Shown: positions 36,329-51,304 of the stretch, piece by piece | Layout of the letters: every line of letters begins with the position of its first letter | Numbering within the stretch: position 1 is the first letter of the stretch | DNA from: Proteobacteria bacterium UBA664 | Lineage (GTDB): Bacteria; Pseudomonadota; Gammaproteobacteria; UBA7966 | DNA length: 64,000 nucleotides | NCBI GenBank assembly: GCA_002299125.1 | Contig: DBNU01000061.1 | Coordinates: forward strand, 514-64,513 | Reading direction: 5' to 3' | Position numbers and translations under genes: made by a program | The notes under the pieces: model-generated | Told to the model about the DNA's origin: nothing | What the model saw: only the letters and a program-made list of their open reading frames with translations | Database searches by the model: none

Positions 36329-39079
36329 CTACCCTGTCCATGCCGTCGTCATCAACACCACGAAATCCCGGCGCGACAGCACGGCCGTGCAGTCGCGCCA
36401 GTCCTTGTCGGGCGGTGCCATCGTGGCGGTGTAGCGAAGGTCGAAGCCGGTCGCCTCGCGCTGGGCGTCGATGTACTCGTCCATCTTCAGGCCCAGTGCC
36501 TCGATGTCGGCTATCCACTCGTCCTTGATGGTGTCCGGGACGGAACCGAACAGGTCGTAGCGGTCGCGCATGCGGTCCGAGAGGCGGTCGTAGATCTTCT
36601 CGTCGACGGTCTGCTCGTTGACCAGGTTGAGCATATCCACGGTGTCGCGCTTCTGGCCGAAGCGCTTGATGCGACCGATGCGCTGTTCGAGCCGAGTCGG
36701 GTTCCAGGGGAGATCGACGTTCACCAGCGTGCCCAGGGTCTGCAGGTTCAGGCCCTCGCAGGCGGCGTCCGTGGCCACCATGATCCGGATCTGGTGCTCG
36801 GCCACCCTCTTCTTGAGCGTCTCGCGTTCGCAAGACACGCTGTCGCCGCGCTGGTAGAGCCGGCTGCGGCCGGCACCGGCGTACAGACCAATCGCTTCGT
36901 CCGGGTAGCGCCGGGCGAGCTGCTCCACCACCCAGCGCGCGGTGTCGTAGTACTGGCTGAAGATGATCACACCCAGATCCAGCCACTTCTCGCGGGCCAG
37001 GTAGTACAGCAGTGCCGCCAGCTTGGGGTCGGACTCGATCCGCTCCAGCCGGTTCAGCAGCCGTTCCAGGGCCTCGCGCTCTTCGCCCGTTTCAACGGCC
37101 AGTTCTGCGTCGCCCTCTTCTTCCTCGTCGCGCAGGGTCTGGCCCTGCAGCAGCGCTCGCACGGTGTTCAGCCCGGCGTGGATCGACGAGCAGATGCGCT
37201 GCTCGACCAGGTTCTTCATGAACCCGCCGCCGCCCCCGCGACCCTGGCCACGCGCGCTCAACGCCTTGCCGAAGGCGCGTGCCTCACGGTACGCCTCGCG
37301 AAAGTCGTCGCTGGTGCGCAGGGCCTTGGCCTCGAACAACGCATCGAAGCCCTGGGGCTCGCGGACGAGCTGCCGATCGGGATGCACGTCCACGCCCACC
37401 CGTGCCAGCAGGCCGGCGTCCTCCAGGCTGACACGCTTGCGCAGCACCACGTGGCGCACCAGGGGGTTCTCGCGCTGGAAGAAGGTGGCGCCGGACACCT
37501 GACGGTGCAGTTCGTCTTCCAGGATCTCGCGCGTGTCCTCGCTCAGGTCGGCCAGCGACCGGGCGGTCTGGGTCTCGTCGTTCACCAGTCCCAGATCCTG
37601 GCGGATCGCGCTGAACAGCCGTCTTGCGCGCGGTTCGCGTGTGGAGTCCACCAACGGCAGCGGGGACCGCAGCAGCTCCCACGCATGTTCGGCCGAGGTC
37701 ACCTCCTGCCGGCCCGACAGAATCTCCAGCACCTCGCCAGCCCGGTGCCAGGCTGCGAAGTCGTTGCCCAGCACGAAGTTGCCGCGCCCCTGGTGCAGGA
37801 TGCCGATCAGGTCCCACAGGTCCTGCGGTTGGGTCTGGATGGGCGTCGCCGTGCCCAGCAACACATGCTCGGATCGGGCCGCGATCTCGCGCATGAAGGC
37901 CAGCAGTTCGTTCGGCGTGCCCGCGTCGGTGCCGAAGCCCTGCCGCGTGCGGGCCTTGTGCGCCTCGTCCAGGATCACCAGGCCAAAGCGCAGGCCCAGC
38001 AGATGCTGCTTCTCGGCCGACTGACGCATCATCAGCCCGGTCGAGACGATGCCGATGCGCAGCGGGCAGCGCGCGATGTGCTCGCGGCCGGCAGGCGAGA
38101 TGGCCCGTTCCTGGTCATCGAGCCAGACCTTGCGCACGGTGTCCCAGCGCGCGCACGGGATGCCCAGCTTGTCCAGCATCTCGGTCTGCCACTGCTCGCA
38201 CAGCGTGGCCGGGGCGAAGATCACCACCGGCCGCCGGGCTTGCTGCTCACGGTCGGCCAGCAGGCACAGCGTCAGCGCCGCGGTGCCGAGCGACAGCGTC
38301 TTGCCCAGGCCTACCTCGTCGGCCAGCAGCAGGCGCACCACCCTGTGCATCTGGTGGTGGCGCAGGCACTCGGTCACGAAGCCTTGCTGCCACGGCTGCA
38401 GCGCCAGGCCCTCGCGGTACAGCGGCGACTCGATCAGCGCGGCCGGCGCCACGTCGTCAACGCCCTCGATCTCATCGAACACCACCTCGCGGCGGTAGCC
38501 ACGCCGGTGCACCTCACGGATCACGGCCTCGGGCAGCGGGCGCGCGACGTTCCACAGGAAGTCGAACTCGCTCTCGATCCAGGCCACACCTTCGGGCGAC
38601 TCGTCTTCCCACAGGATCTCGTAGTGGCGCTGCCAGCCGCTGCGGGTCTCGTTCATCGAGCCGATGAAGCCCAGCCTGCGCCCATCGGCCAGATCGATGA
38701 CGCCGGCCTTGCCGTGCACGAAGCCGCACACGCTGTCGGGCGCCACGCGCACCGCCTGGCCGTGCCGCTGCAGGAAGGCATCCAGCCGGCGGTAGCGGTC
38801 GCGGTTCAGCAGTGCCTCGGCCTCGATGGCACCCTCGTTCCAGCGGCCCAGCATGCGGGCCTCGCGCAGTTGAGCCACCTTCAGGTCGTCGGGGTGGATG
38901 TCGACGTTGCACACGATGCGGACGTGCGGAATGCCTTCCAGCAGCTCGTGCGCCACCTCGAACAGCGAGCTGGTGAAGTAGCCCGCGATGCGCCGGTAGC
39001 TGCGCGCGCCCTGCAGGTGCTCCAGCAGAAAGCTGGCGTCCAGCCGGTGCGTGCGTGACGAGAAGCGCCGAATCGACAC
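36329..39079 (-). CDS. SNF2-family helicase with N-terminal phospholipase D-like (HKD) nuclease domain
   Basis: The HKD motif is FVHGKAGVIDLADGRRLGFIGSMNET. SNF2 motif I is LLADEVGLGKTL, motif II is LDEAHKAR, and helicase C motif VI is QRIGRIKRFGQ. It is the last gene of the co-directional island. Confidence 0.85.
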   Translation of the reverse strand: MSIRRFSSRTHRLDASFLLEHLQGARSYRRIAGYFTSSLFEVAHELLEGIPHVRIVCNVDIHPDDLKVAQLREARMLGRWNEGAIEAEALLNRDRYRRLDAFLQRHGQAVRVAPDSVCGFVHGKAGVIDLADGRRLGFIGSMNETRSGWQRHYEILWEDESPEGVAWIESEFDFLWNVARPLPEAVIREVHRRGYRREVVFDEIEGVDDVAPAALIESPLYREGLALQPWQQGFVTECLRHHQMHRVVRLLLADEVGLGKTLSLGTAALTLCLLADREQQARRPVVIFAPATLCEQWQTEMLDKLGIPCARWDTVRKVWLDDQERAISPAGREHIARCPLRIGIVSTGLMMRQSAEKQHLLGLRFGLVILDEAHKARTRQGFGTDAGTPNELLAFMREIAARSEHVLLGTATPIQTQPQDLWDLIGILHQGRGNFVLGNDFAAWHRAGEVLEILSGRQEVTSAEHAWELLRSPLPLVDSTREPRARRLFSAIRQDLGLVNDETQTARSLADLSEDTREILEDELHRQVSGATFFQRENPLVRHVVLRKRVSLEDAGLLARVGVDVHPDRQLVREPQGFDALFEAKALRTSDDFREAYREARAFGKALSARGQGRGGGGGFMKNLVEQRICSSIHAGLNTVRALLQGQTLRDEEEEGDAELAVETGEEREALERLLNRLERIESDPKLAALLYYLAREKWLDLGVIIFSQYYDTARWVVEQLARRYPDEAIGLYAGAGRSRLYQRGDSVSCERETLKKRVAEHQIRIMVATDAACEGLNLQTLGTLVNVDLPWNPTRLEQRIGRIKRFGQKRDTVDMLNLVNEQTVDEKIYDRLSDRMRDRYDLFGSVPDTIKDEWIADIEALGLKMDEYIDAQREATGFDLRYTATMAPPDKDWRDCTAVLSRRDFVVLMTTAWTG

Positions 39080-39083
39080 CGGT

Positions 39084-40505
39084 TCAGTGCCCCGGCCTCA
39101 CGCCGCCCTTGCGTCCGAGGCCGAAGCCCACACGGTATAGATCAGGCATGTCGACGCAGCCATCCTTCTTCATCTCCATCAGCCCTAGGCGTTGCAGGTC
39201 CTCGCGAAGCCCATCCCATCCGCGAGCCTGCGCGGGGAGTCGATCTGAAGGAATGCTCTGAGGTCCATCGGGAAATCTTGCGGACCAACGCGCCACGACC
39301 GCTTCGAATTCACCAGGGACGTTCATCCCTTTGAGCTCTGACAGCACTTCAGGAATCCACTGATAGTCCTCAGCAATTTCCTGAACACGAATCTCCGAGG
39401 CCTTCTGGATACCCCGTTTGATGCTCTCGTAATGCAGCGCGAACACATGCTCTGCATGGCGTTCAGCGGAATCCTCGGCGCTCTTCCGAATTGCAGCAAG
39501 GAACGAGCGGGGGGAGGTACGGCCTTGACCGTCGGCCAAATGGCTGACGGACCACGTATACGGTACTCCCCGTCGCTTGTCGCGACCCATCCACGGGCCC
39601 GCCAGACGCTCGAAGGCCTTGCGCTGCGCTTCCGATTCGATCTTCATTTCATCAGCAACGCGCCAGGTTCCTTGCTGATCACTGTGAGCGCACAGGGCAC
39701 GCATACGCTCGCCATGTACGGCGGGTGCATTGATCAAGCGTTGCCAGAGCAGCCCGTGCAAATCGTGGCGAGCCCAAGTCAATTCGGCCTTGGTCGCAGT
39801 GAGCTTGGAGGCATCGGGAAAGTTGAACACCGTGCGTTCAGCTTGGTCCTCCCGAAGGAAGACCTTGCCGTAGAGCCCGGGGAAGGACTTCAGCCAAAGG
39901 ATGGCCCGCAATAATCCACGTACGATCTCGTCCATCCGTTGCCAGATGCTGCTGGTGCGGTCCAGCGCGTCAAAGACGACAAGGCAACGCGGGTGTCTGG
40001 GCAGTTGCATCAGCCGTGCGGCCCCCTCGGGGTCGGACTTGAGCCAGGCAACCGTCTCGCCCCAGTCCTGGCAGGGAACTCTCTGACCGGACATATCTGC
40101 CACCCATCGAAGGATCACTGCACGCCACAAGTCATATGGATCACCGTCATGGTCCAGGAATGTCGCGAACACGTCGGCATTTGGGTAATTTGCGATGTTC
40201 TCGGTATTGGCGAAACCGAGCCTGACGGCGGCACCGGTGAGTTCGGATGCTCCGCTCCCCAGGAGCAGCCGCAACGAATCCAACTGCAAAGCAGCCGTCC
40301 AGAAGGACTTTCCCACGCCGCGGCCGCCGACGACGACATGCGCATCAAGACGCAGCGCCTTCAGGTGCGACGGCGGGACGTAGAGCAGCCCTGGCTCCGG
40401 TGTCTCGCCGAAACTGCTGGTCTCGAGCGGTGCGGCAAGAATGGCTGCCCGCAAGGCTTGAGCTTCCGTCAGGTTCTCAGTCATGGAGTATCCCCCTGAC
40501 TCCAT
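39084..40505 (-). CDS. uncharacterised P-loop NTPase (Walker A GGRGVGKS; candidate Walker B LVVFDALD)
   Basis: 473 aa. I recognise no family. It is tightly coupled to its neighbours, 4 nt from the SNF2 start and overlapping the ParA-like stop. Confidence 0.45.
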   Translation of the reverse strand: MESGGYSMTENLTEAQALRAAILAAPLETSSFGETPEPGLLYVPPSHLKALRLDAHVVVGGRGVGKSFWTAALQLDSLRLLLGSGASELTGAAVRLGFANTENIANYPNADVFATFLDHDGDPYDLWRAVILRWVADMSGQRVPCQDWGETVAWLKSDPEGAARLMQLPRHPRCLVVFDALDRTSSIWQRMDEIVRGLLRAILWLKSFPGLYGKVFLREDQAERTVFNFPDASKLTATKAELTWARHDLHGLLWQRLINAPAVHGERMRALCAHSDQQGTWRVADEMKIESEAQRKAFERLAGPWMGRDKRRGVPYTWSVSHLADGQGRTSPRSFLAAIRKSAEDSAERHAEHVFALHYESIKRGIQKASEIRVQEIAEDYQWIPEVLSELKGMNVPGEFEAVVARWSARFPDGPQSIPSDRLPAQARGWDGLREDLQRLGLMEMKKDGCVDMPDLYRVGFGLGRKGGVRPGH

Positions 40506-41817
40506 CGATCAGAGGCCCGAAGATGCTGTTGACTTCTGCATCGTCGATGACAGCCAAGCGCCCCTGCAGAGATTGCAGTCCGGCGAAGCTCCGGTGCCAG
40601 TGCACGACCCACGGGTAATGCGGGGCACCTTCGTCGGCCTCGTCGAAATTCCATCCCTCCACTACTTCACCGACTCGCCAAACCGCGTGACCGCCCACCC
40701 TCTCGTAGGAGATAGTGCCAGGGTCCGGAGGTGGAATATCGTCGTACAGCGTATCGGAAAAGACGCGATAGGCCCGCTCACGCAGCCCTGCGAGATATGC
40801 GATCCGGTCCACTTCCGGAATCATGGCGGCAACATGCCTCAGGCGCTCTCGGATCTGGGGTGCCACACCGCCCTGCCGCCAGTGCTCAAACAGAATTCGA
40901 TAGCCAGTCCACGTCTGACTTCCCTCGAAGGCGAACAGCAGTACCAGATTGGCACCAAGATCGGTGACACACGCCGATGCGACCTCATCGATCCCGGCTC
41001 GCGAATCAATGAGCACGACATCGGGCTGCGTACGCACCTCGAGCATTTGCAAGAGCCTTTGCAAGCGAGCAGACCAGGTCTCGCGAGAGCCATCATCGCT
41101 GACCTTGGGCATCCAGATGCGACCAAGCTTGAGCACATACTCTCCCGGTTCTGCCCCATGGGCTGGCACCACGTAGATCTGCCCATCCCGCGACAGATCG
41201 CTAGTCGCAACCATGCCGTCGAGCACGCTGTCCGCGTTGTCGACCAAGTCTTCCACCAGCCAGTCGGTGATCCCATACATGGGCTGGCGCCCCGCGGGCA
41301 GCAGACTGGACGACAGCCCGGGGGATTCCAAGTCCAGATCGAGCACCAGCACCCGCTTACCCAGCTGGGCGAGCTTCCAGGCACAAGCTGCAAGCGCAGT
41401 GGAGCGTCCAACGCCCCCCTTGATGGAGAAGAACACGACGCGCGGCGCACCTACGGTTTCAGGGGCGATCTGCGTCCAGTTGCCCTCCGTCGCCAGCCGA
41501 TCAACGACCCACACATGATCGAATCCTTGTAGCAGGCGGCGGGCCCCACCGGCGCAAGCCGTCTCCAGATCCACATCGTAGAGAACGCTGACTTCTGCCT
41601 CATACGCGTGGGGACAGATTCGCCCGGCGAGCACCTGGTAAAGCGCCTGAAGCGATTCGCGCAATACGTCGTCGGTCTCGACATTCTCTGGCGCGATGAA
41701 TCGAACGCGGCCGTTGAGGTCGCGGTTGATCACCAGCCAGTCCAGTTGCGTGAGCTGGCGGCGCTGCGCCTCCAGCACCTCGGCGACCGCAGGCAGGATC
41801 TGATCGAAGATCGTCAT
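40477..41817 (-). CDS. ParA/MinD-like ATPase with about 150 aa N-terminal extension and atypical deviant Walker A (KGGVGRST)
   Basis: FSIKGGVGRSTALAACAWKLAQLGKRVLVLDLDLESPG has the ParA/MinD-type P-loop with the signature Lys, but with Arg at the canonical GK[ST] position. The start is at the internal ATG (MTIFDQILP). Confidence 0.55.
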   Translation of the reverse strand: MTIFDQILPAVAEVLEAQRRQLTQLDWLVINRDLNGRVRFIAPENVETDDVLRESLQALYQVLAGRICPHAYEAEVSVLYDVDLETACAGGARRLLQGFDHVWVVDRLATEGNWTQIAPETVGAPRVVFFSIKGGVGRSTALAACAWKLAQLGKRVLVLDLDLESPGLSSSLLPAGRQPMYGITDWLVEDLVDNADSVLDGMVATSDLSRDGQIYVVPAHGAEPGEYVLKLGRIWMPKVSDDGSRETWSARLQRLLQMLEVRTQPDVVLIDSRAGIDEVASACVTDLGANLVLLFAFEGSQTWTGYRILFEHWRQGGVAPQIRERLRHVAAMIPEVDRIAYLAGLRERAYRVFSDTLYDDIPPPDPGTISYERVGGHAVWRVGEVVEGWNFDEADEGAPHYPWVVHWHRSFAGLQSLQGRLAVIDDAEVNSIFGPLIDGVRGILHD

Positions 41818-42254
41818 ATCTTCAAACCTTCCTTGCGGGCGGTCTGCATGAGATTCGCAACAAGAGTCGCACCACGCCGATGCCTTTCCACACATAGCAG
41901 ATCGAAGCAGGACTCATGGGCGTATCGCTGCGATACGGACCAGTCCGAAAAAGGATTCGATGTCGGCACAGACAACCTGGTGGCCAGCGCATGGCCCACC
42001 AAGTGCGTCTGATAGCGCGACCAGGCAGTCGCCGGCTTCTTGTCTTCCATGATGTGGACGAAATCCTGCTTCGGTTCAAGGATGCCGCTTGGAACCAGCT
42101 TCTCGCTGAGCGCCTTCAGCCCACATTCGGCTGCCAGTCCGTACAGATGATCCGCATTCGCCAATCGGCCGGCCAGGAACAAGCGCTCTGCATCGTCCAT
42201 GTGCCGTTCATGTGCATTCAGGAAGTCCGCCTGCATCCTCTCACCTTCACACAC
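41814..42254 (-). CDS. hypothetical protein (about 140-146 aa), no recognised domain
   Basis: The ORF overlaps the MTase stop by 8 nt and the ParA-like start by 4 nt (translational coupling). An alternative start at 42236 is possible. Confidence 0.35.
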   Translation of the reverse strand: MCEGERMQADFLNAHERHMDDAERLFLAGRLANADHLYGLAAECGLKALSEKLVPSGILEPKQDFVHIMEDKKPATAWSRYQTHLVGHALATRLSVPTSNPFSDWSVSQRYAHESCFDLLCVERHRRGATLVANLMQTARKEGLKI

Positions 42255-45204
42255 CGAAGCGCTGGTTCTTCAGCCGGGCACCCAGCACCTCGGCCGCCGT
42301 GCGCACGTCGGCCGAGGGCGCCTTGCGCTCCACGAAGGCCAGCAGGTCCACCAGCAGCGGCCGGGCCTCCAGGAAGTCGGGCATCTCGGCCTGCAACTGG
42401 CTGATGATGGTCTGCGGCTCCAGCTCGGCGCGCATCTGCTGCAGCGCAATCACCAGCCGGCCCAGGCGCGTGGCGCCGAGCTCGGTGCTGTCGGTCAGGT
42501 CGCGCGAGGCGAACTCGCTCACCTGCTTCAACCGGGCCTCGTTGGGCGCCACGTTGGCCATCACGCGAGCGTAGTCCTGCACGCGGAAGGCCTTGGCGAA
42601 GTTCTGGTAGTTGTCCAGCTTGCGCGCCCCCGTGGTCTCCATGTCCATCATGCGCAGCACGAAGCGCTCGATGCCGGACAGCTTGCCCCAGGTGTCTGCC
42701 GCCAGGCCCTCGGGCACCAGCAGGTTGCTGGCCGCTTCCGCAGCCTGTTGCACGATCTCGTCCACCACCGTGACCTCGCCCTTCACGCGCGGGCGCAGCG
42801 CGAAGCTGGTGACGTCTTCGCCGCCGATGTGGGTGTAGCCGGTCAGCACCTTCAGCGCCGCGGCGTAGCCGGCCATCTGCAGGTCGGAGTCGTTGAACAC
42901 GGGTTCGCCGTGATGGGCCTTCACGGCGGTGTTCAGGTGCATCATGGTCCGGATCTGCCGGTCCACCTCCTGCCGCACGGCCGGCAGCAGGCGCTGCTTG
43001 AAGGCGGGCCGGTCCCCAGCCGGGCGCTTGCGCAGCATCAGCGTCACCGTGCCTTGCACGTAGCCGCCCTTCTTCAGTTCGGACGTGGTCTCGGTGGCGA
43101 TGTACCAGGCCGCCACCACCTGCAGCCCCGCGGCCCAGAAGATGCCGACGAGGTCGCTCCAGACACCGGTGTCCTGGTGCGTGAACATCACGCACTGCAT
43201 GCCGTTTTCGGGCATGTGCGTGGCCATCGTGGAGTAGGCCGCCACCATGTTGCGGCGGAAATCTTCGCCCGAGCCCTTAATGGCCAATGCTCGACGCGAG
43301 TCCCAGACCCATTCGTCGAAGGGCTTGGGTGGGTTCTTGCGCAGCCAGGCGATGAAGAATTCGGTAATCTCGTGGTAGTTGACGGCGTCGGCGTAAGGCG
43401 GGTCGGTGATCCAGAACTCGCATTCTTTATCGGTTTGCGCAGCGGATTCTGTGGATACTTCCGCAGCGCCAAAACCCCGAACGGTGTTAAGAGAGCGAAA
43501 TTCGCGAAACAGAAAAGCTCCGACAAATGAATCTGCGGTCCTCACTCCCCAGTTGTAGAGCGTGTTCAATGCCTGATTGACGAAGACGCGGAGCGGGATG
43601 TCCTGGGCGTGCGTACTACTCCATTGGCACAGTTTCGCTGATCGGTCGAGGGACTTCGCAAATGCAACCGTAAGTTCAGTCCTCAATGAACTTGCCGACA
43701 CCTGCTGATAGAGCAACGCCAAACACGTCAACTGCCGTGCATTGAACAAATGTTGCCAATGCGTCCAGCCGCGCGTGCGGATGGGTTCATCGGTCTTGTC
43801 ACCCGGCTCGATGGACATATCCGGCGCCAGGCCATCTTCCTGCCATCGGCCCAGGTTCTCGGCGACGAGGGCTTCGATGCACCGCTCACGTTCCAGGTCG
43901 GCCTCGGTGGCGGCGGCGAAAAAGGTTTCCTGCCGGGATTGGTTCAGGCTTTTCTGGGTGATCCACTGAATGCAATACAGGCGTTCCTGAAAGATGTCAT
44001 CGGGCCGGGGCTTGAAATCCGCCTTCTTCCAGCGGCGCAGGCGATTGCCCGTGGTGCCATCCGGCAACCGATAGTCGCCGCGCAGGGTCTTGATGGGGGT
44101 GCGCCAGGTCTTGCCGTCCAGTTCATAGACCAGACCGCCGTCCCGGACCGTGCCCTTTTCGGCGGCTTTCATCTCGGCGTCCGCCACGCCCGAGCGAATC
44201 TCTATGTCGAAGCGCCTTTTGGTGTGATCGGGTTTCAAACGCGCAATGACGCGCTTGTCTTGTGAGATGACCCAACTCGGTGACATGGGGATCGTCCAGC
44301 CGGTTTCCGGGCAGCGGGTTTCCAGGCAGTAGAGATACGCCTTGGCGCGGTTGCCCTGTTCGTCGTGTTCGATGCCGAGCGCGGTGATCTCGCGGTCCAC
44401 CGCCTCGGCGACTTCGCGTTGCGCCTTCTCGACCTCGGCACGACGCTCTGGGCTGGCGCCGATGATGTTGAGCGCGCCCCAGGTGAGCATGCACGCTATC
44501 GGGTTGAGGTCCGCGGCGTAGACATCGCAGCCCAGCCGCGCCGCTTCAAAGGGGATGGAGCCGCCGCCGCAGAAGGTGTCGCCCACGCGCGGGCGGTGGC
44601 CGTAGCGCAGGATGCCGAGCTGCTCGATGAGTTCCGGGAAGGAATGCGCCTCGATACCGAAGCGTGCATAGTGCCGGTTGACGACCGGCCACACCGGCGC
44701 ATAGAGCCAGTCCTGATCGACTTCTTCGGGACGCTTGCAAAGGCTCGCCTTCTCTTCGTAGCTTGCGAATGTGGCCAATGCCCTGCGGTACAGCACGAGC
44801 TTGTCTTCGTCGGTCACGCCTCGTCGCCAACCACGACCGCCAAAGTACCGTTCCGGATCGGGGATTGAGATGAGTTGCTGTAGCGCGGTGGCAGAGAATG
44901 CGGTGGCCGCCAGCGCACGGCGAGCGAGGCTCTCGTCGTCAAACGCCAACAGCGCTTCGAATATCGCGAGGCCGCTTTCTGCGTCGTCCGTGGGCGGCAA
45001 CAGGCTGCCCAGGACAATGGCGCGGACCAGGATCAGGGGCTTCCTGCCCTTCCAGTAGGAGCCCAGGCCCGTCAGGGTCTGTCCCAAGTTGGCCTTACGT
45101 TCCTTCTGCGCTTCGAAGGAAACCTTCTGGACAGGGAAGACCGATTCGATCAAGGCGGGCGCGTCGCGCAGCGCGCCAGCGTTGAGGGGTGGACGATGGG
45201 TCAT
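42247..45204 (-). CDS. DUF1156 domain-containing N6-adenine DNA methyltransferase (defence-island associated)
   Basis: 985 aa. It has a SAM-binding loop (FCGGGSIPFEAARLG) and the catalytic DPPY motif (FWITDPPYADAVNYHE). Its overall length and organisation match the large DUF1156 methylases found with DUF499 ATPases. Confidence 0.8.
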   Translation of the reverse strand: MTHRPPLNAGALRDAPALIESVFPVQKVSFEAQKERKANLGQTLTGLGSYWKGRKPLILVRAIVLGSLLPPTDDAESGLAIFEALLAFDDESLARRALAATAFSATALQQLISIPDPERYFGGRGWRRGVTDEDKLVLYRRALATFASYEEKASLCKRPEEVDQDWLYAPVWPVVNRHYARFGIEAHSFPELIEQLGILRYGHRPRVGDTFCGGGSIPFEAARLGCDVYAADLNPIACMLTWGALNIIGASPERRAEVEKAQREVAEAVDREITALGIEHDEQGNRAKAYLYCLETRCPETGWTIPMSPSWVISQDKRVIARLKPDHTKRRFDIEIRSGVADAEMKAAEKGTVRDGGLVYELDGKTWRTPIKTLRGDYRLPDGTTGNRLRRWKKADFKPRPDDIFQERLYCIQWITQKSLNQSRQETFFAAATEADLERERCIEALVAENLGRWQEDGLAPDMSIEPGDKTDEPIRTRGWTHWQHLFNARQLTCLALLYQQVSASSLRTELTVAFAKSLDRSAKLCQWSSTHAQDIPLRVFVNQALNTLYNWGVRTADSFVGAFLFREFRSLNTVRGFGAAEVSTESAAQTDKECEFWITDPPYADAVNYHEITEFFIAWLRKNPPKPFDEWVWDSRRALAIKGSGEDFRRNMVAAYSTMATHMPENGMQCVMFTHQDTGVWSDLVGIFWAAGLQVVAAWYIATETTSELKKGGYVQGTVTLMLRKRPAGDRPAFKQRLLPAVRQEVDRQIRTMMHLNTAVKAHHGEPVFNDSDLQMAGYAAALKVLTGYTHIGGEDVTSFALRPRVKGEVTVVDEIVQQAAEAASNLLVPEGLAADTWGKLSGIERFVLRMMDMETTGARKLDNYQNFAKAFRVQDYARVMANVAPNEARLKQVSEFASRDLTDSTELGATRLGRLVIALQQMRAELEPQTIISQLQAEMPDFLEARPLLVDLLAFVERKAPSADVRTAAEVLGARLKNQRFGV

Positions 45205-45213
45205 GTGGCGGCT

Positions 45214-45456
45214 TCAGGCGCGGCAGGCCTGGTCCGGATCATTGGGTTTGTCGGGCCGGGTCATGGCGACCCGGCCGGCGCGCAGCAGGGGGCGCAGGTC
45301 GTTCTGGCGCACGGTCTCGGCCTTGCGGCCCGGCAGCGCCGCGATCTCCGCCGCCCGCCAGGGGCGCAACTCGCAGAGCGCCACCACCAGGTCTTGCACC
45401 TCCTGGGGCGGGCGGCGCTGGCTGATGGCGCCGAGCCGCGCGGCCAGGGCGTCCAC
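45214..45456 (-). CDS. standalone winged-helix DNA-binding domain protein (Fic/ATPase C-terminal-like wHTH); possibly a gene remnant
   Basis: 80 aa. LRPLLRAGRVAMTRPDKPNDPDQ matches the conserved ...GLIEMTIPDKPNS..QKY C-terminal HTH tail seen in many Fic and AlbA_2/ATPase proteins. It lies 9 nt upstream of the MTase start. Confidence 0.4.
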   Translation of the reverse strand: MDALAARLGAISQRRPPQEVQDLVVALCELRPWRAAEIAALPGRKAETVRQNDLRPLLRAGRVAMTRPDKPNDPDQACRA

Positions 45457-45459
45457 GGC

Positions 45460-45882
45460 TCATGCCCCCCGAATCGAGCGCACGGCGATGCTCTGCACCC
45501 GGAACATCGGCTTGGTGGGCTTCTCGGCGCTGATGAGCTCTGCTACGCCCGCCTTCGCTGCGTGTGCCACATGGATCGCATCCATCGCAGCGACGCCATG
45601 GCTCTCGGCGATGACAAGCGCCTGTTGCAAGGCCGTGGGGTCCCACGCGATGTTCTCGGCTTGGCTGAAGACTTCCTCGTAGAACTGCACTTCTTCTTGC
45701 TGCTTGTGAAAGCGCGCCTTGGGCACGGCCTCCAGACGAACCGCATCGCTGACGACCAGAGAGCGCTCTGGATCGTCAAGCACACTCAGCGCCCTGCGTC
45801 CAAGTTCACCCTCCCCCTTGAAGGCAGCGATCAGCAGACAAGTGTCGATGTAGGTGCGCTTAGGCATCGCCCACTCCGCCAC
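45460..45882 (-). CDS. PIN domain nuclease (VapC-like toxin)
   Basis: YIDTCLLIAA (the first acidic residue of the PIN fold) and AMDAIHVAHA give the PIN signature. The real start may be MPKRTYIDT at 45867. Confidence 0.65.
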   Translation of the reverse strand: MAEWAMPKRTYIDTCLLIAAFKGEGELGRRALSVLDDPERSLVVSDAVRLEAVPKARFHKQQEEVQFYEEVFSQAENIAWDPTALQQALVIAESHGVAAMDAIHVAHAAKAGVAELISAEKPTKPMFRVQSIAVRSIRGA

Positions 45883-46192
45883 GGCGATGCCGCAACTCGT
45901 CGTCCAGCGCGGTCGCGGACATCAGCTTCCCACCGCTGGCGATATATGCCTGGCGCAGGGCCAAGAGCTTTTTGCCCAGTCCCGTTCTGGGCTGGAACCC
46001 GACAATCCAGTCTTCGGCCTGCAAGGACGCGCGCGAACCGGTCGTCAAAGCGGTGCCTGCTTCGTAGCGAATGGCCCAGTCGGCCACGCGTGCAGGTTGT
46101 TCTGGTCGATCTGTGGCTTCATGCCGATAGGCAAGGACCGGCGTGCTCCAGAGTGGCAGCGGTGGTACGTCCAATGCGAAGGCAAACATCAT
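45860..46192 (-). CDS. putative antitoxin partner of the PIN protein (family not recognised)
   Basis: A small ORF upstream of and overlapping the PIN gene, in the usual antitoxin-toxin order. Its start codon abuts the TIGR04255-like stop. The true start may be internal. Confidence 0.3.
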   Translation of the reverse strand: MMFAFALDVPPLPLWSTPVLAYRHEATDRPEQPARVADWAIRYEAGTALTTGSRASLQAEDWIVGFQPRTGLGKKLLALRQAYIASGGKLMSATALDDELRHRRGGVGDA

Positions 46193-46932
46193 CAGTACTC
46201 CGGGTCCAACCTGGCGACTGATTCTTCAGTCAGGATCTGGCGGAAGAACATGGCCTTCGAGCGGTCATGCAGCTCGTCGAGCTGCGCGCGAACTGAGCTC
46301 CAATCGCCTGTCGGGTTCTCTGGCAGGGTCTCCAGATCAACGATGGTGCCTTTCAGTTGCGACCCCGAAAGGTTGACCTGCGCTGCGGTAGCGATCTGGA
46401 CAACATGCAGGTAGTCGTCGTCAGGTATCTCAACCCGCAACTGCACGCGGTCGCTGATCGTGCGGTCGCCCACTGTCAAGGCCACTCTGAGCACTGAAAG
46501 ATCGTCCGCCAGCTCCTCACCAAGCAGGTCGATGTAGCGCAGCGAATGACGCTGAAGCTGAGGGATGAGGGTGCTGCCTTCGACAATCCTGGAGAGCGCC
46601 TCGACAGCATCCTTGAATCGAGCCCATCCTACGTAAGGCCTGCGGCAGTTGAGGGTGATCACGCGATCGCCTACTTGCCAGATGAAGCCCCCCCCCGGCT
46701 CCTCCATCAGCACCTTCGGTGTGAACCGCAGGTTGGGGTCGATCTGGGCGATCACCGCTGGAATGTCGGCCGACGGCAGTCGCCGCAGTTGCAGGGCAGG
46801 ATGGCTCTTCCTCAGCTCGGTAAAAAGAATCCCAGGCAAGACATCACCGATGCCCTGACCGCTGTCGAACTGGGCCTGCCAGATCGCTTCGATGATGGGC
46901 TCTTTCCTCAGCCGCTTCGGCAGTGCGTTCAT
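46192..46932 (-). CDS. hypothetical protein, TIGR04255-like (about 246 aa)
   Basis: The N-terminus LPKRLRKEPIIEAIWQAQFD resembles the conserved start of TIGR04255-family proteins, as far as I recall; this family assignment is unverified. Confidence 0.4.
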   Translation of the reverse strand: MNALPKRLRKEPIIEAIWQAQFDSGQGIGDVLPGILFTELRKSHPALQLRRLPSADIPAVIAQIDPNLRFTPKVLMEEPGGGFIWQVGDRVITLNCRRPYVGWARFKDAVEALSRIVEGSTLIPQLQRHSLRYIDLLGEELADDLSVLRVALTVGDRTISDRVQLRVEIPDDDYLHVVQIATAAQVNLSGSQLKGTIVDLETLPENPTGDWSSVRAQLDELHDRSKAMFFRQILTEESVARLDPEY

Positions 46933-46956: not shown

Positions 46957-47661
46957 TCATATCGTTGTCCCGTCGCCGAATAGGTCCAAAGTGGGGCGAC
47001 CAACTTCTTGAGTGTGACCGCCGCGCCTGGCGCGGGGAGAGAGCAACTCGCTCTGCGCCACGTCGCCCAGCGCGTGGCGCAGGGCCAGCCGCCAGCCCTT
47101 GTCGCCATCACCGATGCCGCCCGTGCTCATCGCGGTCATGCCGAACAGCCACCAGCGCTCCTCGGGGCGCAGCGCCAACCAGTTGCGCACGGCGACGGGG
47201 ATCTTCTCCATCTCCATGTGCTCGACGGCCCAGACCAGCACGCAGAGCTCCTTGCCCAGCAGCCGATCGACCAGGTTGTCGCCGGCCTTCCAGGCGCTGG
47301 GCTTCAGGTTGTGCGTGCTGAGCCGGGCATTGAAGGCGCGTTGCACCTCGGCGCGGATGGCGGTCCAGCGCGCGCGGTTGAGCACGGCCCGGTCGATCAC
47401 GGAGTGCTCGTCGCTCAGGGCCTGCAGGCCGAGGTACTCGCTCACCTGCACGGGGGCGGTGTTGCTGCGCGGAACGATCACCTTGAAGTGGTGCGGATCC
47501 GACGTGGCAGGCACACCGAAGCCCAGGGTTGGGCGTGCGTCGGCCGCCGCAGCTCTGGCCGTGGCCGATGCGGGCGCTGCGGCGTTGGCGTTGAGTACCG
47601 CGGCCGCGCGGGTGGTCCTGGGCTTGGTCACGATCGGTGATGCCCGGCCGCCCGAAGCCAC
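46957..47661 (-). CDS. DUF3780-like protein
   Basis: About 200-234 aa, immediately downstream of the DUF499 gene, which is the usual position of DUF3780 in DUF1156/DUF499 loci. The assignment rests on context and general resemblance and is not motif-verified. The Ala-rich N-terminal 40 aa may be non-coding. Confidence 0.4.
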   Translation of the reverse strand: MASGGRASPIVTKPRTTRAAAVLNANAAAPASATARAAAADARPTLGFGVPATSDPHHFKVIVPRSNTAPVQVSEYLGLQALSDEHSVIDRAVLNRARWTAIRAEVQRAFNARLSTHNLKPSAWKAGDNLVDRLLGKELCVLVWAVEHMEMEKIPVAVRNWLALRPEERWWLFGMTAMSTGGIGDGDKGWRLALRHALGDVAQSELLSPRARRGGHTQEVGRPTLDLFGDGTTI

Positions 47662-47712: not shown

Positions 47713-50700
47713 TCATGCCTCCTGCACTACGTCGCCGGGCTTGAGCTCTAGGCCCACCAGCCTGGCGAAATCCTTGGCCGCAAAGCCGGTGTCGAAGTGG
47801 GCGCCGTCACTGATGTTCACGACCACCGGCGCCTGGTCTTCGGCCAGCAGCTGGCGCAGGCTGTTGATCACGCCCTCGATCACGCTGGCAGTGACCTCGC
47901 GCTCCTGGAAGCGTACGGTCACGGTCTTCTCGCCTTCACCGATCTCGATGCGCACGCCCTTGAACAGCGTGCCGGGTTGATCGCGGAAACGGTTGATGAC
48001 CCCGAACACGCGGTCGGTGGTGTCCAGGCCGATGCGCTTGGGCTGCAGCTTGACGGACTTGGTGTCATTGATCTGGACGGTCTTGTCGCCGCTGGCCGGG
48101 ATCTGGAAGTCCGCCGTCTTGTTGGCCTCGCCGGCGTGGGCGTAGACGAGCAGTCGGGCCGCGGCGGCACCGATCTCGAACGGGCCCTCGTAGGGCAGGC
48201 CATCGCGCGGGTTGGAGCCGTCGAGCGTGTAGGTGAGCGTGGCCTTGGGCGTGCACGCCAGCGTGACGCGGCGCTTGTCGGCGGCCGGCTCCACCTGGTG
48301 ACGGATCTTCAGTTCGGCGGTCCAGCGAACGGGCGTGCCGGTTTCGTAGTGGCCGGTGGTGTCGCGGGCCAGGAAGTACAGCGTGCCTTCCGTCGTGGTG
48401 AAGCTGTCGAGGTTGTCGATGGACTGGCCGTTGACCAGCCCCTCGGGGCGGGTGGCGTAGACCACCACCGGGCTCTCACCCGCGTGGCGCGGCGTGAGGC
48501 TCAGGATGGTGGCGCCGGTGTCCGGCTGGCTGCCGACGACCGAGACGTTGACCGTGGTCTTGTCCTTCGGGAACGGGCCCTTTTCGATGTACCCGTCCTC
48601 ACCCAGGCGCCAGCGGCCTTGCCTGAGGGCCTCGGCCTTCAGCGTGTCCATGCCGCCCGAGCCGGGCATCCAGGGCCAGTCGGGATTGCTCTTGGCGCGC
48701 GCCACCACATCCTTCCAGGGCGTGCGGCGGTTGTCCTTGCCCGAGGGCCACAGCACCTCTTCCGCCATGGCGAAGTACTCGCCGAAGCTGTCAGTCAGGT
48801 TGGCGGCCAGCTTGTAGTTGGCGCGCGGGCTGGCAAGCAGGGTTTCGATCTGCGCCTCGGCGGACTGCTCGCCCTTGCCGAGCTTGAGGCCGTTGTCGAT
48901 GGTGACGTTGGCCAGGAAGTGCCGACCGTCGATGGGTTCGGTGCTCGGGAAGTAGACGCGGTTGTAGGCCGCAGACAGAGCCTTCGCGAAACGGTCCTCG
49001 GCCTCCTCGAGCCGATCACGCGCCTCCTCGAAGAGGGTGTCGCCAGCCTTCAGACGCTTGTGGATCTGCTCGATGGCGTATAGCTCTCGCAGGCGGTCTT
49101 CCACGGCTTCGGCCAGGTGACTGTCCTGGCCGGTGAGCACGAGGAGGTTGTTCTTCTCCTGCTGGTAGTCGAAGAAGTTCTGCAGCTCGCTGGGCGGCAC
49201 CTTGCCGTCCGGCTTGATGACGATGAGGGTGCGCGGGCCGCTCAGGCGGATCTCGTCGAGGCGAGGCAGCACCTGCACGTCCTGGTACGCCCGGCGCCGA
49301 TCCGGCTGGAGGATGCCGGTGAGCCGGTTGATCAGCGCCTGGTCGATCTTGGGCTGCGGTACTTCCTTGGCGTTGCGCTCGATCTGGCGCGAGAGGTTCT
49401 CGGTCTCCTTGACGAACAGGCGCTGGTCTTCGCGGTGCAGGTACCAAGCTTGCTCGCGCAGACGCTGCAGCGCTTGCAGGAACTCGTCGGGCTTGCGACC
49501 GGGCGCGGCGAGGAACTCGATGACCTCGCTCTCTGACAGGCCGATGCGGCCACCCACCGCGCGTGACAGCGACGATGCCAGCAGCAGCGTCATCACCTGG
49601 CGGGATGCGTCGGTATCAAGTTCGAAGTCGATGATCTCGGCAATGGCGTTGCCTTTGTCGGCGATGTCCCGCGTGACAGCCGGCAGCAGCTTGGGGGCGA
49701 TGCGCTCGATCTCGTCACGCACCTGGTCATCGTTCAGAGCCAGGTGCTGGGTGCCGATGAGGTGGACGTCATCGTCCTCGCGCAGCGCCACGCTCTTGAG
49801 CAGCCGCGCCGTGAACTGCATCAAGCCGCGGGTCTGACGGAAGCCCTCGTTCTCCTTGAACAGGGCAACGAGGTGCTTGAACGACGGATGGAAGGGGTAG
49901 GTCTCCCGCACCTGTTCGGCGATCTGCTCAATGCTGGCTGCGACGATGTAGCCCGCGTCTTCGGCTTTTTTGATCTGCTGGGCATACTCCTCGGCCACGT
50001 CGGCGATGACGCGATCGTCGGGCATCATGTCTATGAGACGCGTCTTCAGGATCTCATAGATCTCGTTGCCTGCCAGTTGCACCGGCGTGATCGTCATCGC
50101 CTGGCGGCGGGTTTCCTGCTGCAGGTTCGAGATCGCGTCGGCCAGCGCCTTGGTCTGCGCCTGGTAGCTACCGGAGAGGTTGGCGACGACGATGCAGCAG
50201 TTAGGCAGTTCCAGCGCCGCGCTCATCAGCGTGGCCAGCGAGAACACCACCATGTTGGCCAGCGTTCCCTGTCCGAAGACTTGGGTGCTGGCGTTGTCTA
50301 GGTAGGGCGGGAGTTCGTCGAGGAGGATGAGGGTCGGCTTGTTGCCGATGATCTCTTTCCACTTCGCCTGGTCGACCGACTTCGGGCCGTTTACCCAGTA
50401 GGCCTTGATGGCTTCGGGCTCGCCGAGCTGCGTCGCGATATCGCCCCAGATGTAGTTGTCGGGGGTGATCCGGCCATTGAAGGCCGCTATTCGCGCCTGG
50501 CCGAAGTCGATGCGGTCCTTCAGGTCGGCAGGCAACACCTCCTGCCGCAAGTGCGGGTGGCGCGCCAGCAGGCCCAGCGCGATCATCATATGCGTCTTGC
50601 CGCCGCCCATCGCCTGGGTCAGTTCGAAGACCGCCTGGTCCGACTTGCCGGACAGGCGCAGCAGGCCCTCGCGGAACAACTGCGCCATGCCGTGGGTGAC

Positions 50701-50778
50701 GAAGTTGCGCGAGAAGAACTCGCGCCCGTCTCCAGCGTCGTGAATGACGTCGGCCAGGTTCTCGATGCCCTGGCTCAT
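47713..50778 (-). CDS. DUF499 domain-containing AAA/P-loop ATPase (defence-island associated)
   Basis: It has a Walker A (MGGGKTHMMIALGLL) near the N-terminus and is about 1021 aa, consistent with DUF499. The start was set at the internal ATG (MSQGIENLADVIHD); the frame stays open upstream to 51207. Confidence 0.75.
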   Translation of the reverse strand: MSQGIENLADVIHDAGDGREFFSRNFVTHGMAQLFREGLLRLSGKSDQAVFELTQAMGGGKTHMMIALGLLARHPHLRQEVLPADLKDRIDFGQARIAAFNGRITPDNYIWGDIATQLGEPEAIKAYWVNGPKSVDQAKWKEIIGNKPTLILLDELPPYLDNASTQVFGQGTLANMVVFSLATLMSAALELPNCCIVVANLSGSYQAQTKALADAISNLQQETRRQAMTITPVQLAGNEIYEILKTRLIDMMPDDRVIADVAEEYAQQIKKAEDAGYIVAASIEQIAEQVRETYPFHPSFKHLVALFKENEGFRQTRGLMQFTARLLKSVALREDDDVHLIGTQHLALNDDQVRDEIERIAPKLLPAVTRDIADKGNAIAEIIDFELDTDASRQVMTLLLASSLSRAVGGRIGLSESEVIEFLAAPGRKPDEFLQALQRLREQAWYLHREDQRLFVKETENLSRQIERNAKEVPQPKIDQALINRLTGILQPDRRRAYQDVQVLPRLDEIRLSGPRTLIVIKPDGKVPPSELQNFFDYQQEKNNLLVLTGQDSHLAEAVEDRLRELYAIEQIHKRLKAGDTLFEEARDRLEEAEDRFAKALSAAYNRVYFPSTEPIDGRHFLANVTIDNGLKLGKGEQSAEAQIETLLASPRANYKLAANLTDSFGEYFAMAEEVLWPSGKDNRRTPWKDVVARAKSNPDWPWMPGSGGMDTLKAEALRQGRWRLGEDGYIEKGPFPKDKTTVNVSVVGSQPDTGATILSLTPRHAGESPVVVYATRPEGLVNGQSIDNLDSFTTTEGTLYFLARDTTGHYETGTPVRWTAELKIRHQVEPAADKRRVTLACTPKATLTYTLDGSNPRDGLPYEGPFEIGAAAARLLVYAHAGEANKTADFQIPASGDKTVQINDTKSVKLQPKRIGLDTTDRVFGVINRFRDQPGTLFKGVRIEIGEGEKTVTVRFQEREVTASVIEGVINSLRQLLAEDQAPVVVNISDGAHFDTGFAAKDFARLVGLELKPGDVVQEA

Positions 50779-51304
50779 CCGGTAGTCGTGGATGGCCGCG
50801 TTGAAGCGGCAGGCCTGCTTGACGGTCTTGATCACGCAGTGGCTCCCTTGGCCGCGCGTTTTTTGTTGGCGCAGGCACCGGTGGCGGTGCCCTTGACCCG
50901 GTAGTGCTTGCGGATCGGCAGAGCGTGGTCTCGTCCGGGCGCGTCGTCCAGTAGTTCGAGCCCCGCAAAGCGGCGCATTGGCTTCTCCTCGCAGGGTGAT
51001 CTTCCAGCGCCGGACCCGACAGCGCGCGCCACTATTGCAGGAAGCAGATCGTGGCAGGGTCGCGAGCGGATCAGTGGACGAACCGCGCGACCCGCCGCCG
51101 GGTAGTGCGGCCCGACGACCGTCGGCAGCGTTGCCCAGGGCACCACGGACTCCCTCTCCGCCAAGAATAACTCCCGGCGCGCCTGCCTCGTCTGCCCTCC
51201 CAAGCAATGCTGGCAGAGGTCATCCACTTCATCTTCATTGCCTCCACCACATCTTGGGCCACAGCGCCGCATACATCCAGATCACCGAGTTATTCTGCGG
51301 TTCC

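Follow-up and report, generated by a model that had tools for sequence, protein, structure and literature searches.

The phage-defence candidates (PDC) of the PADLOC catalogue were found by 'guilt-by-embedding' in multi-gene restriction-modification (RM)-like systems, and seven of nine tested Hma-embedded candidates gave defence, which is a precedent for a defence reading of such genes (Payne et al., bioRxiv 10.1101/2024.01.29.577857). One among the many embedded candidates so catalogued, PDC-M28, is the cassette CAS_00115, FAM_01482>>FAM_02546>>FAM_01036; in the supplementary table a count of 121 stands beside it, taken here as instances in RefSeq v209 (Payne et al., bioRxiv 10.1101/2024.01.29.577857). 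The Type-2 BREX (bacteriophage exclusion)-related (BR) system described by Rakesh & Krishnan consists of a DUF499 ATPase, a standalone DUF3780 protein, an N6-methyltransferase (MTase) and a helicase with an N-terminal HKD nuclease, and its published core holds no further genes (PMC12839542). The present study analyzes three open reading frames (ORFs), here called A, B and C, at positions 39084-42254 on the minus strand of the window, by which we mean the whole stretch of 64,000 nucleotides analysed from Proteobacteria bacterium UBA664 (contig DBNU01000061.1), where they lie between a DUF1156 methylase and an HKD-SNF2 helicase. The three ORFs are PDC-M28, catalogued but functionally uncharacterised, and they form an autonomous, horizontally mobile three-gene unit that has repeatedly landed inside BREX-like operons and is not host-dependent. 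The parts of the cassette are the following.

41814-42236, minus strand: gene A, 140 aa, a small all-helical HEPN-like protein matching PDC-M28A and the probable effector.
40477-41817, minus strand: gene B, 446 aa, a KGGVGR-variant ATPase of predicted MinD/ParA fold, matching PDC-M28B.
39084-40484, minus strand: gene C, 466 aa, a predicted ORC/Cdc6/STAND-like P-loop nucleoside triphosphatase (NTPase) with a helical C-terminal half, matching PDC-M28C.

Proteins A, B and C match the hidden Markov models PDC-M28A, B and C end to end (E 8.5e-40, 5.2e-178 and 1.1e-190), with profile coverage of positions 1-137 of 138 (aa 7-144 of the long ORF), 1-432 of 438 and 1-478 of 480, and the genes have the arrangement specified for PDC-M28, i.e. 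three adjacent genes on one strand in the order A>>B>>C; the FAM numbers are assumed to belong to A, B and C by this order. With such E-values, and with hundreds to thousands of homologues each, the ORFs are far beyond chance. In all three proteins, gene order and strand the composition shows no difference from the catalogue entry, which in its accessible text carries no validation, mechanism or domain description, and the host here is a DUF499 Type-2 BR system as against systems of the BREX, DISARM or type I RM kind used for discovery. The initial annotation of this DNA had seen two ATPases and a small protein between the methylase and the SNF2-PLD helicase, and all of these features are present; the label 'unclassified' that it gave them has to be withdrawn, since B belongs to the curated family NF047398 and all three genes have PADLOC models. 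Users of PADLOC would recognise the cassette at once. The part list as worked out below is nonetheless unusual, and gives PDC-M28 a testable anatomy: a putative AbiV-type HEPN protein, a probable MinD/ParA-fold ATPase with Arg in place of Lys, and a candidate ORC/STAND-like NTPase.

The host operon contains all four Type-2 BR core components with strong Pfam and PADLOC matches, including an FnIII-like region in DUF499. Two of these components flank the cassette directly.

47713-50835, minus strand: DUF499 AAA+ ATPase, 1040 aa by the Joint Genome Institute (JGI) gene call; PADLOC DUF499 E 0, the match beginning at aa 126 of the long ORF.
46957-47661, minus strand: DUF3780 protein (Pfam DUF3780, 7.7e-77), a hallmark of Type-2 BREX-related systems.
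42247-45204, minus strand: DUF1156 N6-adenine methyltransferase, PADLOC DUF1156_MTase E 0 and Pfam DUF1156; upstream neighbour of the cassette.
36329-39079, minus strand: HKD(PLD)-SNF2 helicase-nuclease, PADLOC PLD_Helicase E 0 and Pfam PLDc_2, SNF2-rel_dom and Helicase_C; downstream neighbour of the cassette.

Along transcription the order is MTase, A, B, C and helicase, with all genes of the region on the minus strand, so that the small ORF A directly follows the MTase and B comes second, not first as had been supposed for the ParA-like gene. Gene starts were set by homologues and by an independent JGI gene call on an identical metagenome contig, and both place the true starts of A, B and C later than the longest-ORF starts. 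The corrections change several lengths. Gene A had been described as a 146-aa ORF overlapping both neighbours by 4-8 nt, and its overlap with B is indeed 4 nt (ATGA); the true protein has 140 aa, and its ATG, preceded by the purine-rich Shine-Dalgarno-like stretch AAGGTGAGAGG, lies 10 nt past the MTase stop, the 8-nt overlap with the MTase belonging only to the 146-aa GTG version. Likewise the N-terminal extension of B comes to about 125 aa with the corrected start and not about 150, and C, given earlier as 473 aa, has 466. Genes B and C overlap by 8 nt, and a gap of 4 nt separates C from the GTG of the helicase. The gaps of 10 and 4 nt leave no room for a promoter or terminator of the cassette's own, so the cassette would be read with the host operon, and from this layout A, B and C are predicted to be co-transcribed and translationally coupled within it. 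The guanine-cytosine fraction of the cassette is 0.57-0.62, compared with 0.64-0.70 in the host core genes and 0.68 in the chromosomal flanks.

A scan of GTDB, with one genome per species, yielded 21 loci with a relative of B, and A, B and C occurred together and in the same order in all 21. BR genes surrounded the cassette in the same MTase-A...C-helicase arrangement at nine loci, and at ten no BR gene was found in the available flanks, one further contig being too short to tell; the triad is conserved in related islands and also occurs alone. The embedded slot is found in Methylococcus, Stenotrophomonas and metagenome loci as well. In two of the nine embedded loci (L004 and L007) the BR genes are fragmentary and A-B-C intact, and at L013 only a 68-residue helicase fragment is left, downstream of an intact cassette. 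Stand-alone copies lie among housekeeping genes, as in Allochromatium tepidum and the metagenome contigs L029 and L034, and in a bulk scan the 102 flanking ORFs of stand-alone loci belonged mostly to metabolic families, with scattered single defence matches only. When the concatenated proteins are placed in a neighbour-joining tree, embedded copies are interleaved with stand-alone ones, which argues that the embedded state was gained or lost more than once. More distant triads, at 30-45% identity and with KGGVGR[ST] kept, stand by themselves on conjugative plasmids from Burkholderia glumae and Enterobacter asburiae, and one with KGGVGRT and GGRGVGKT is flanked by pglW and pglX within the BREX-2 system of plasmid NZ_CP130719 from Streptomyces sp. 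NBC_01334 (L038, 4089-7503); A is recognisable in the distant triads by its family profile (E 1e-19 to 2e-26). With C as the query, tblastn found nothing in a set of 50,697 phage genomes, and within this set the cassette is therefore not carried by phages.

These observations bear on the choice left by the initial annotation, which had proposed either a sensor or regulatory sub-module or an independent embedded defence module. Under the former, the cassette would be an accessory of the BR host, for example tuning the MTase or loading or licensing the HKD-SNF2 helicase, and would have no function of its own. Such a role is consistent with the recurrent MTase-helicase slot, seen in nine of 21 species-level loci and again in Methylococcus, Stenotrophomonas and metagenome loci, with the lack of room for a separate promoter or terminator, with the fold class that C shares with BrxC/DUF499 ATPases, and with the distant triad inside BREX-2. 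It does not account for the triads without any nearby BREX-related gene in ten of 21 loci, in several genomes and on plasmids, or for cassettes that are intact where the host genes have decayed. Further, a profile comparison of C with the local DUF499 by hhalign gave no similarity (probability 0.9%), and elsewhere the neighbouring slot of the operon is filled by unrelated modules such as DarTG, indicating that the BR operon tolerates cargo. Because the published core lacks A, B and C and about half of the loci carry them without the system, the three genes are outside the DUF499/DUF1156 core, as the initial annotation had stated. Stand-alone copies and copies outliving a decayed host system disfavour an obligate sub-module, which we regard as unlikely, and the other half of the earlier choice, an independent embedded module, is the one that agrees with a cassette moving as a unit, with and without its host, and catalogued as PDC-M28. 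The lifestyle is that of other modules embedded in BREX-like operons (HEC-01 to -09, PARIS, Septu and DarTG), which are likewise compact, nested in a multi-gene RM-like system and also found alone; their protein content is different, and none has a MinD/ParA-fold ATPase.

Over aa 125-314, protein B scores 200 bits (cutoff 90) on the NCBIfam model NF047398, 'KGGVGR-motif variant AAA ATPase' (AAA_KGGVGR). This is a curated family of which the KGGVGR motif is the defining trait. The motifs of B are as follows.

41398-41421, minus strand: deviant Walker A KGGVGRST, aa 133-140, with the signature Lys K133 kept and R138 at the Lys position of GK[ST].
41317-41343, minus strand: switch-I-like LDLDLESPG, with D160, D162 and E164 invariant or nearly so.
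40993-41019, minus strand: Walker B-like strand VVLIDSRAG, with D271 and G275 invariant or nearly so.

The KGGVGRST sequence had been read correctly, with its signature Lys and with Arg at GK[ST], and the Arg is family-wide. Of 120 close homologues, all but one (119) carry SIKGGVGRS. A scan of 1.84 billion cluster representatives gave 319 matches at E<=1e-30, and among the best 150 of these 319 the motif-bearing representatives (of 50%-identity clusters) had Arg in 132 of 135, Cys in three and Lys in none. R138 never varies in an alignment of 86 full-length representatives with identities of 31-61%, and K133, LDLDLESPG and VVLIDSRAG are invariant or nearly so. The replacement of Lys by Arg is a family-wide trait and not a local mutation. 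Models and weak profile hits support B as an ATPase of MinD/ParA fold in which the signature Lys and the Asp residues are retained and the phosphate-binding Lys is exchanged for Arg. Walker A changes of Lys to Arg typically preserve nucleotide binding and cripple hydrolysis, and natural examples of a degenerate P-loop, TadZ and BcsQ, act as ATP-bound dimers rather than as motors. Both TadZ/CpaE (e.g. PDB 3fkq) and BcsQ have, like B, a MinD/ParA-like ATPase domain in which the canonical Walker A Lys is replaced; B differs in having Arg there, not Thr or Ala, in keeping the signature Lys, and in a wholly unlike functional context. The P-loop of 3fkq lies at the same distance from the N-terminus as that of B, about 130 residues, which suggests a two-domain layout in which the N-terminal domain of B may be receiver-like. 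An N-terminal region of some 125 aa precedes the ATPase domain of B, and a C-terminal region of about 130 aa follows it. Within the latter an acidic/aromatic motif, EGWNFDEADEGAPHYPW (window 40609-40659, B aa 387-403), is very strongly conserved, and its P399 and H400 are invariant across the 86 diverse family members.

A MinD/ParA fold would also suit a plasmid or chromosome partition system of ParA type, or some other housekeeping positioning system, present here by chance. B does have P-loop similarity to MinD, ParA, ArsA and BcsQ in Pfam and NCBIfam, and homologues occur on plasmids. However, in the PDB and Pfam the similarity to ArsA, Soj, MinD and BcsQ extends over only about 40-60 residues around the P-loop (sequence and profile searches of B against the PDB gave P-loop matches only), and scores against the partition and positioning models are far under their cutoffs, at 24 bits of 180 for ParA_partition, 30 of 213 for minD_bact and 31 of 158 for BcsQ. 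B also fails the ParA/MinD deviant Walker A pattern xKGGxxK[ST], having the signature Lys with Arg as the canonical one throughout the family. The fixed partners are the HEPN-like A and the STAND-like C, not ParB, MinE or a centromere-binding protein, the gene tables that were read list no ParB-like gene beside the cassette, and the cassette sits inside defence operons. Nor did the remote-homology and Foldseek comparisons, which gave a weak HEPN-like result for A and an ORC/Cdc6/BrxC-like one for C, assign the genes to a partition pair or a housekeeping family. Given the short, P-loop-only similarity, the sub-cutoff scores, the replaced Lys and the missing partner, a partition system was rejected as highly improbable. 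The label 'ParA family protein', carried by genes of this cassette, is misleading.

Protein C retains both nucleotide-binding motifs.

40305-40328, minus strand: Walker A GGRGVGKS, aa 53-60, with the canonical Lys intact.
39960-39980, minus strand: Walker B VVFDALD, aa 169-175, with the hhhhDxxD pattern seen in the NACHT-type DGLDE motif.

Both had been noted from the letters alone and both were confirmed, G[GS]RG[VAM]GKS being present in all 120 of 120 homologues, and F171, D172, A173, L174 and D175 being invariant, with a strand in the model at E167-171. The AlphaFold2 model of C is moderate, with a predicted local distance difference test (pLDDT) score of 74, and in the PDB Foldseek matched it to ORC1/Cdc6 (7jgr_A, E 2.2e-4, and 6wgg_A), archaeal ORC2 (1w5s_B) and BrxC (9zll_D, 3.5e-4); these matches have E of 2e-4 to 6e-4 and probabilities of 0.99-1.0, with template modelling (TM) scores of only about 0.3. 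Within the C family there are weak Pfam matches to NACHT (20 of 59 members, best E 0.0015) and AAA_16 (18 of 59, best E 0.0027), both below gathering scores, and C reaches 54 bits against the NCBIfam 'P-loop ATPase, Sll1717 family', under its cutoff of 75. Taken together, the models and weak profile hits support C as a probable ORC/Cdc6/STAND-like NTPase with intact Walker A and Walker B. It resembles the BrxC, DUF499 and ORC-Cdc6 AAA+ proteins and the STAND sensors (Avs, bNACHT) in predicted fold class, intact Walker A and hhhhDxxD Walker B, but is far smaller, at 466 aa, lacks a repeat-type sensor domain, falls below threshold for the NACHT, AAA_16 and Sll1717 families and is unlike the local DUF499 by profile. 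The hhalign result given above is also the reason why the idea of C as a recent paralogue of the host DUF499 ATPase was dropped. Two segments of low model confidence stand out in the C alignment. At aa 446-466 (window 39087-39149) C has an invariant tail, MPDLYRVGFGLGRKGGV, and at aa 300-321 (window 39522-39587) the sequence GRDxRRGxPYxW, rich in Arg and Gly, is likewise invariant; possibly these are docking or nucleic-acid-binding segments.

For A the AlphaFold2 model, built from a 62-sequence alignment, is all-helical and confident (pLDDT 88.6). Nine of its ten best Foldseek matches in the PDB are HEPN-domain or HEPN-T structures, including ST0689 1wol, 4nqf, TM0613 1o3u, 2q00/2jpu, sacsin 3o10 and AF0298 2hsb, and the tenth, 1ufb, has no HEPN label in the table; scores are weak, at E 0.35-2.7, probability up to 0.97 and TM 0.44-0.59. 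The Pfam family HEPN_AbiV is weakly matched by eight of 62 members of the A family (best E 0.0068) and HEPN by one. Neither A nor C has a Pfam match at normal thresholds, sequence and profile searches of both against the PDB gave nothing useful, and a Foldseek comparison of the A model with viral structures in BFVD returned nothing meaningful. Across distant homologues E37, C38, K41, H61, W99, R104 and Y105 are invariant. In the homologue alignment the canonical Rx4-6H motif is absent, R104 being invariant and the following His not conserved: after R104-Y105 the homologues read AH, AQ, AA, AP, AN, NA, YD or TD. H61 lies between the model helices 25-47 and 71-79, and E37 within the helix 25-47. 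In the AbiV/AF0298 variant of HEPN the Arg is kept and the His lost, with an alternative conserved His in an insert separating helix 2 from helix 3 and an acidic residue in helix 2 (PMC3710099), and the pattern of R104, H61 and E37 appears to fit this variant. A is therefore probably an AbiV/HEPN-T-type HEPN domain, as supported by the models and weak profile hits, and E37, H61 and R104 are its putative active-site residues. AbiV is an abortive-infection protein (PMC3710099). The likeness lies in the small helical fold and in the exchange of one His for another with an acidic residue in helix 2; sequence similarity is marginal, RNase activity is unproven for both, and whereas AbiV acts as a single gene, A has obligate NTPase partners and the further invariants C38, K41, W99 and Y105. 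Several homologues of A of 137-159 aa (e.g. P0255, P0258, P0272 and P0297) are named 'SAM-dependent methyltransferase' by NCBI/UniRef. Because the confident model of A is a small all-helical domain, the name was rejected; it looks like a propagated mis-annotation and is misleading for this gene of the cassette.

A HEPN-like small protein also invites an explanation as a selfish addiction or stabilisation module of toxin-antitoxin (TA) type, one whose NTPases would restrain a HEPN toxin and whose persistence and spread would come from post-segregational killing and not from a dedicated antiviral function. Copies on conjugative plasmids adjoin TA genes, chromosomal sites are scattered among housekeeping genes, and the high conservation of sequence across phyla is consistent with recent horizontal spread. 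Against this, three large genes, two of them for NTPases, are far more elaborate than the known HEPN TA pairs, and repeated embedding in BREX-like operons is the signature that has been used successfully to find defence systems. Addiction and defence roles are, moreover, not mutually exclusive. We consider a purely selfish module rather improbable.

The reading that we favour, and hold to be somewhat better than evenly probable, sees the cassette as an abortive-infection module in which NTPases gate a HEPN protein, an autonomous PDC-M28 unit placed in the MTase-helicase junction of a Type-2 BR operon. In the mechanism that we infer, C would be the NTP-dependent sensor or switch for an infection cue. 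B would bind ATP and form a sandwich dimer of MinD/ParA type, as expected from the needed elements it keeps, including the signature Lys, and hydrolysis would be slow or nil, since Arg replaces the Lys that normally drives it; B would then probably serve as a long-lived ATP-dependent dimerisation scaffold. B is expected to work physically with C. Three divergent natural B-C fusions of 915, 935 and 929 aa (cluster representatives P0368, P0392 and P0402), each consisting of a full B-like part joined through about 12 linker residues to a full C-like part behind it, argue that the two work as one machine, with assembly or frameshift artefacts not fully excluded. The B-C assembly would bring A into the dimeric state that HEPN ribonucleases (RNases) need, and A could then cleave RNA and abort the infection, the cassette acting as a second layer behind the DNA-targeting host system. 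There are precedents for both halves of this scheme. In conflict systems, MinD/ParA-like domains predicted to be inactive occur coupled to STAND ATPases (PMC7159879), and HEPN RNases that serve DUF499 and BREX systems as 'back-up' effectors, by fusion or by embedding, have been described (PMC3710099, PMC12839542). The MinD/ParA-like systems with STAND (AP-ATPase) or vWA-MoxR partners (Kaur et al. 2020, PMC7159879) pair or fuse a MinD/ParA domain judged catalytically impaired with a STAND NTPase, as B may be paired with C; they are, however, large multidomain proteins of multicellular bacteria, have no HEPN partner described, and are likened to B by description. If the defence function is true, PDC-M28 would be the first antiviral system with a MinD/ParA-fold switch at its centre and would add to the evidence for RNA-targeting back-up layers in BREX-like systems.

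Several observations weigh against this NTPase-gated HEPN module. PDC-M28 is one of 145 candidates that its authors call untested (bioRxiv 10.1101/2024.01.29.577857), and it is not mentioned in any paper text found by our literature search; searches on KGGVGR and Sll1717 likewise returned nothing relevant. The HEPN scores of A are weak (Foldseek E at least 0.35; Pfam E at least 0.0068, in eight of 62 members) and the canonical His of Rx4-6H is lacking, while the model of C is moderate with low TM-scores, and neither the N-terminal nor the C-terminal region of B matches Pfam or NCBIfam in any of the 86 diverse members. Identity is 65-70% for B and 72-80% for C across several proteobacterial classes, Verrucomicrobiota and Acidobacteriota, which is unusually high for defence proteins. 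The short gaps to the host genes, with the co-transcription they imply, are compatible with a functional link to the host as well. Finally, stand-alone copies are mostly outside defence islands, although the same was reported for many embedded-derived candidates when alone (Payne et al., bioRxiv 10.1101/2024.01.29.577857).

A variant of the defence idea, more specific and to our minds quite unlikely, is that the cassette serves BREX-like immunity as a guard or decoy layer. C, as a miniature BrxC/ORC-like ATPase, would mimic the host ATPase and be the target of phage anti-BREX inhibitors or DNA mimics, whereupon the hydrolysis-impaired B would lock as an ATP dimer and so dimerise and activate the AbiV-type A. 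If true, this would be a new use of a MinD/ParA-fold switch to license an RNase, and would explain why the cassette recurs inside BREX-2 and DUF499 operons while able to work alone.

The host operon has a second cargo slot in the interval between DUF3780 and the MTase (window 45214-46932, minus strand), which holds four small genes.

46192-46932, minus strand: TIGR04255-family protein.
45860-46192, minus strand: 110-aa ORF.
45460-45867, minus strand: PIN-domain protein.
45214-45456, minus strand: 80-aa ORF with a weak Fic-like_C match.

Together, the 110-aa ORF and the PIN-domain protein resemble a pair of VapBC type, and the two proteins of this slot that were scanned had no PADLOC model. In related Type-2 BR operons with A-B-C the slot is occupied by DarT (L033, 4844-5599) and not by TIGR04255/PIN, or by DarT with a Macro-domain gene in a DarTG-like arrangement (L031, 4432-5247, and L032, 3894-5614), and in Methylococcus it holds only a 75-aa gene. 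With contents differing across operons, the DUF3780-MTase interval is a variable cargo site, whereas the MTase-helicase slot is that of PDC-M28. Among other irregularities of embedded loci, the MTase match of L002 (5351-9571) is split by about 1.3 kb with A-B-C intact, and L017 (1411-15475) has several frame breaks, which may be long-read errors, in DUF499, MTase and helicase as well as in B and C. At the head of the operon in the window, the long ORF of the DUF499 gene, which reaches 51207 from a TTG, is an artefact, its start lying about 125 codons upstream of where homology begins. The JGI call places a separate 48-aa gene just upstream of DUF499 (window 50836-51207), and in related loci a 65-aa RHH_5-like gene is found at that position.

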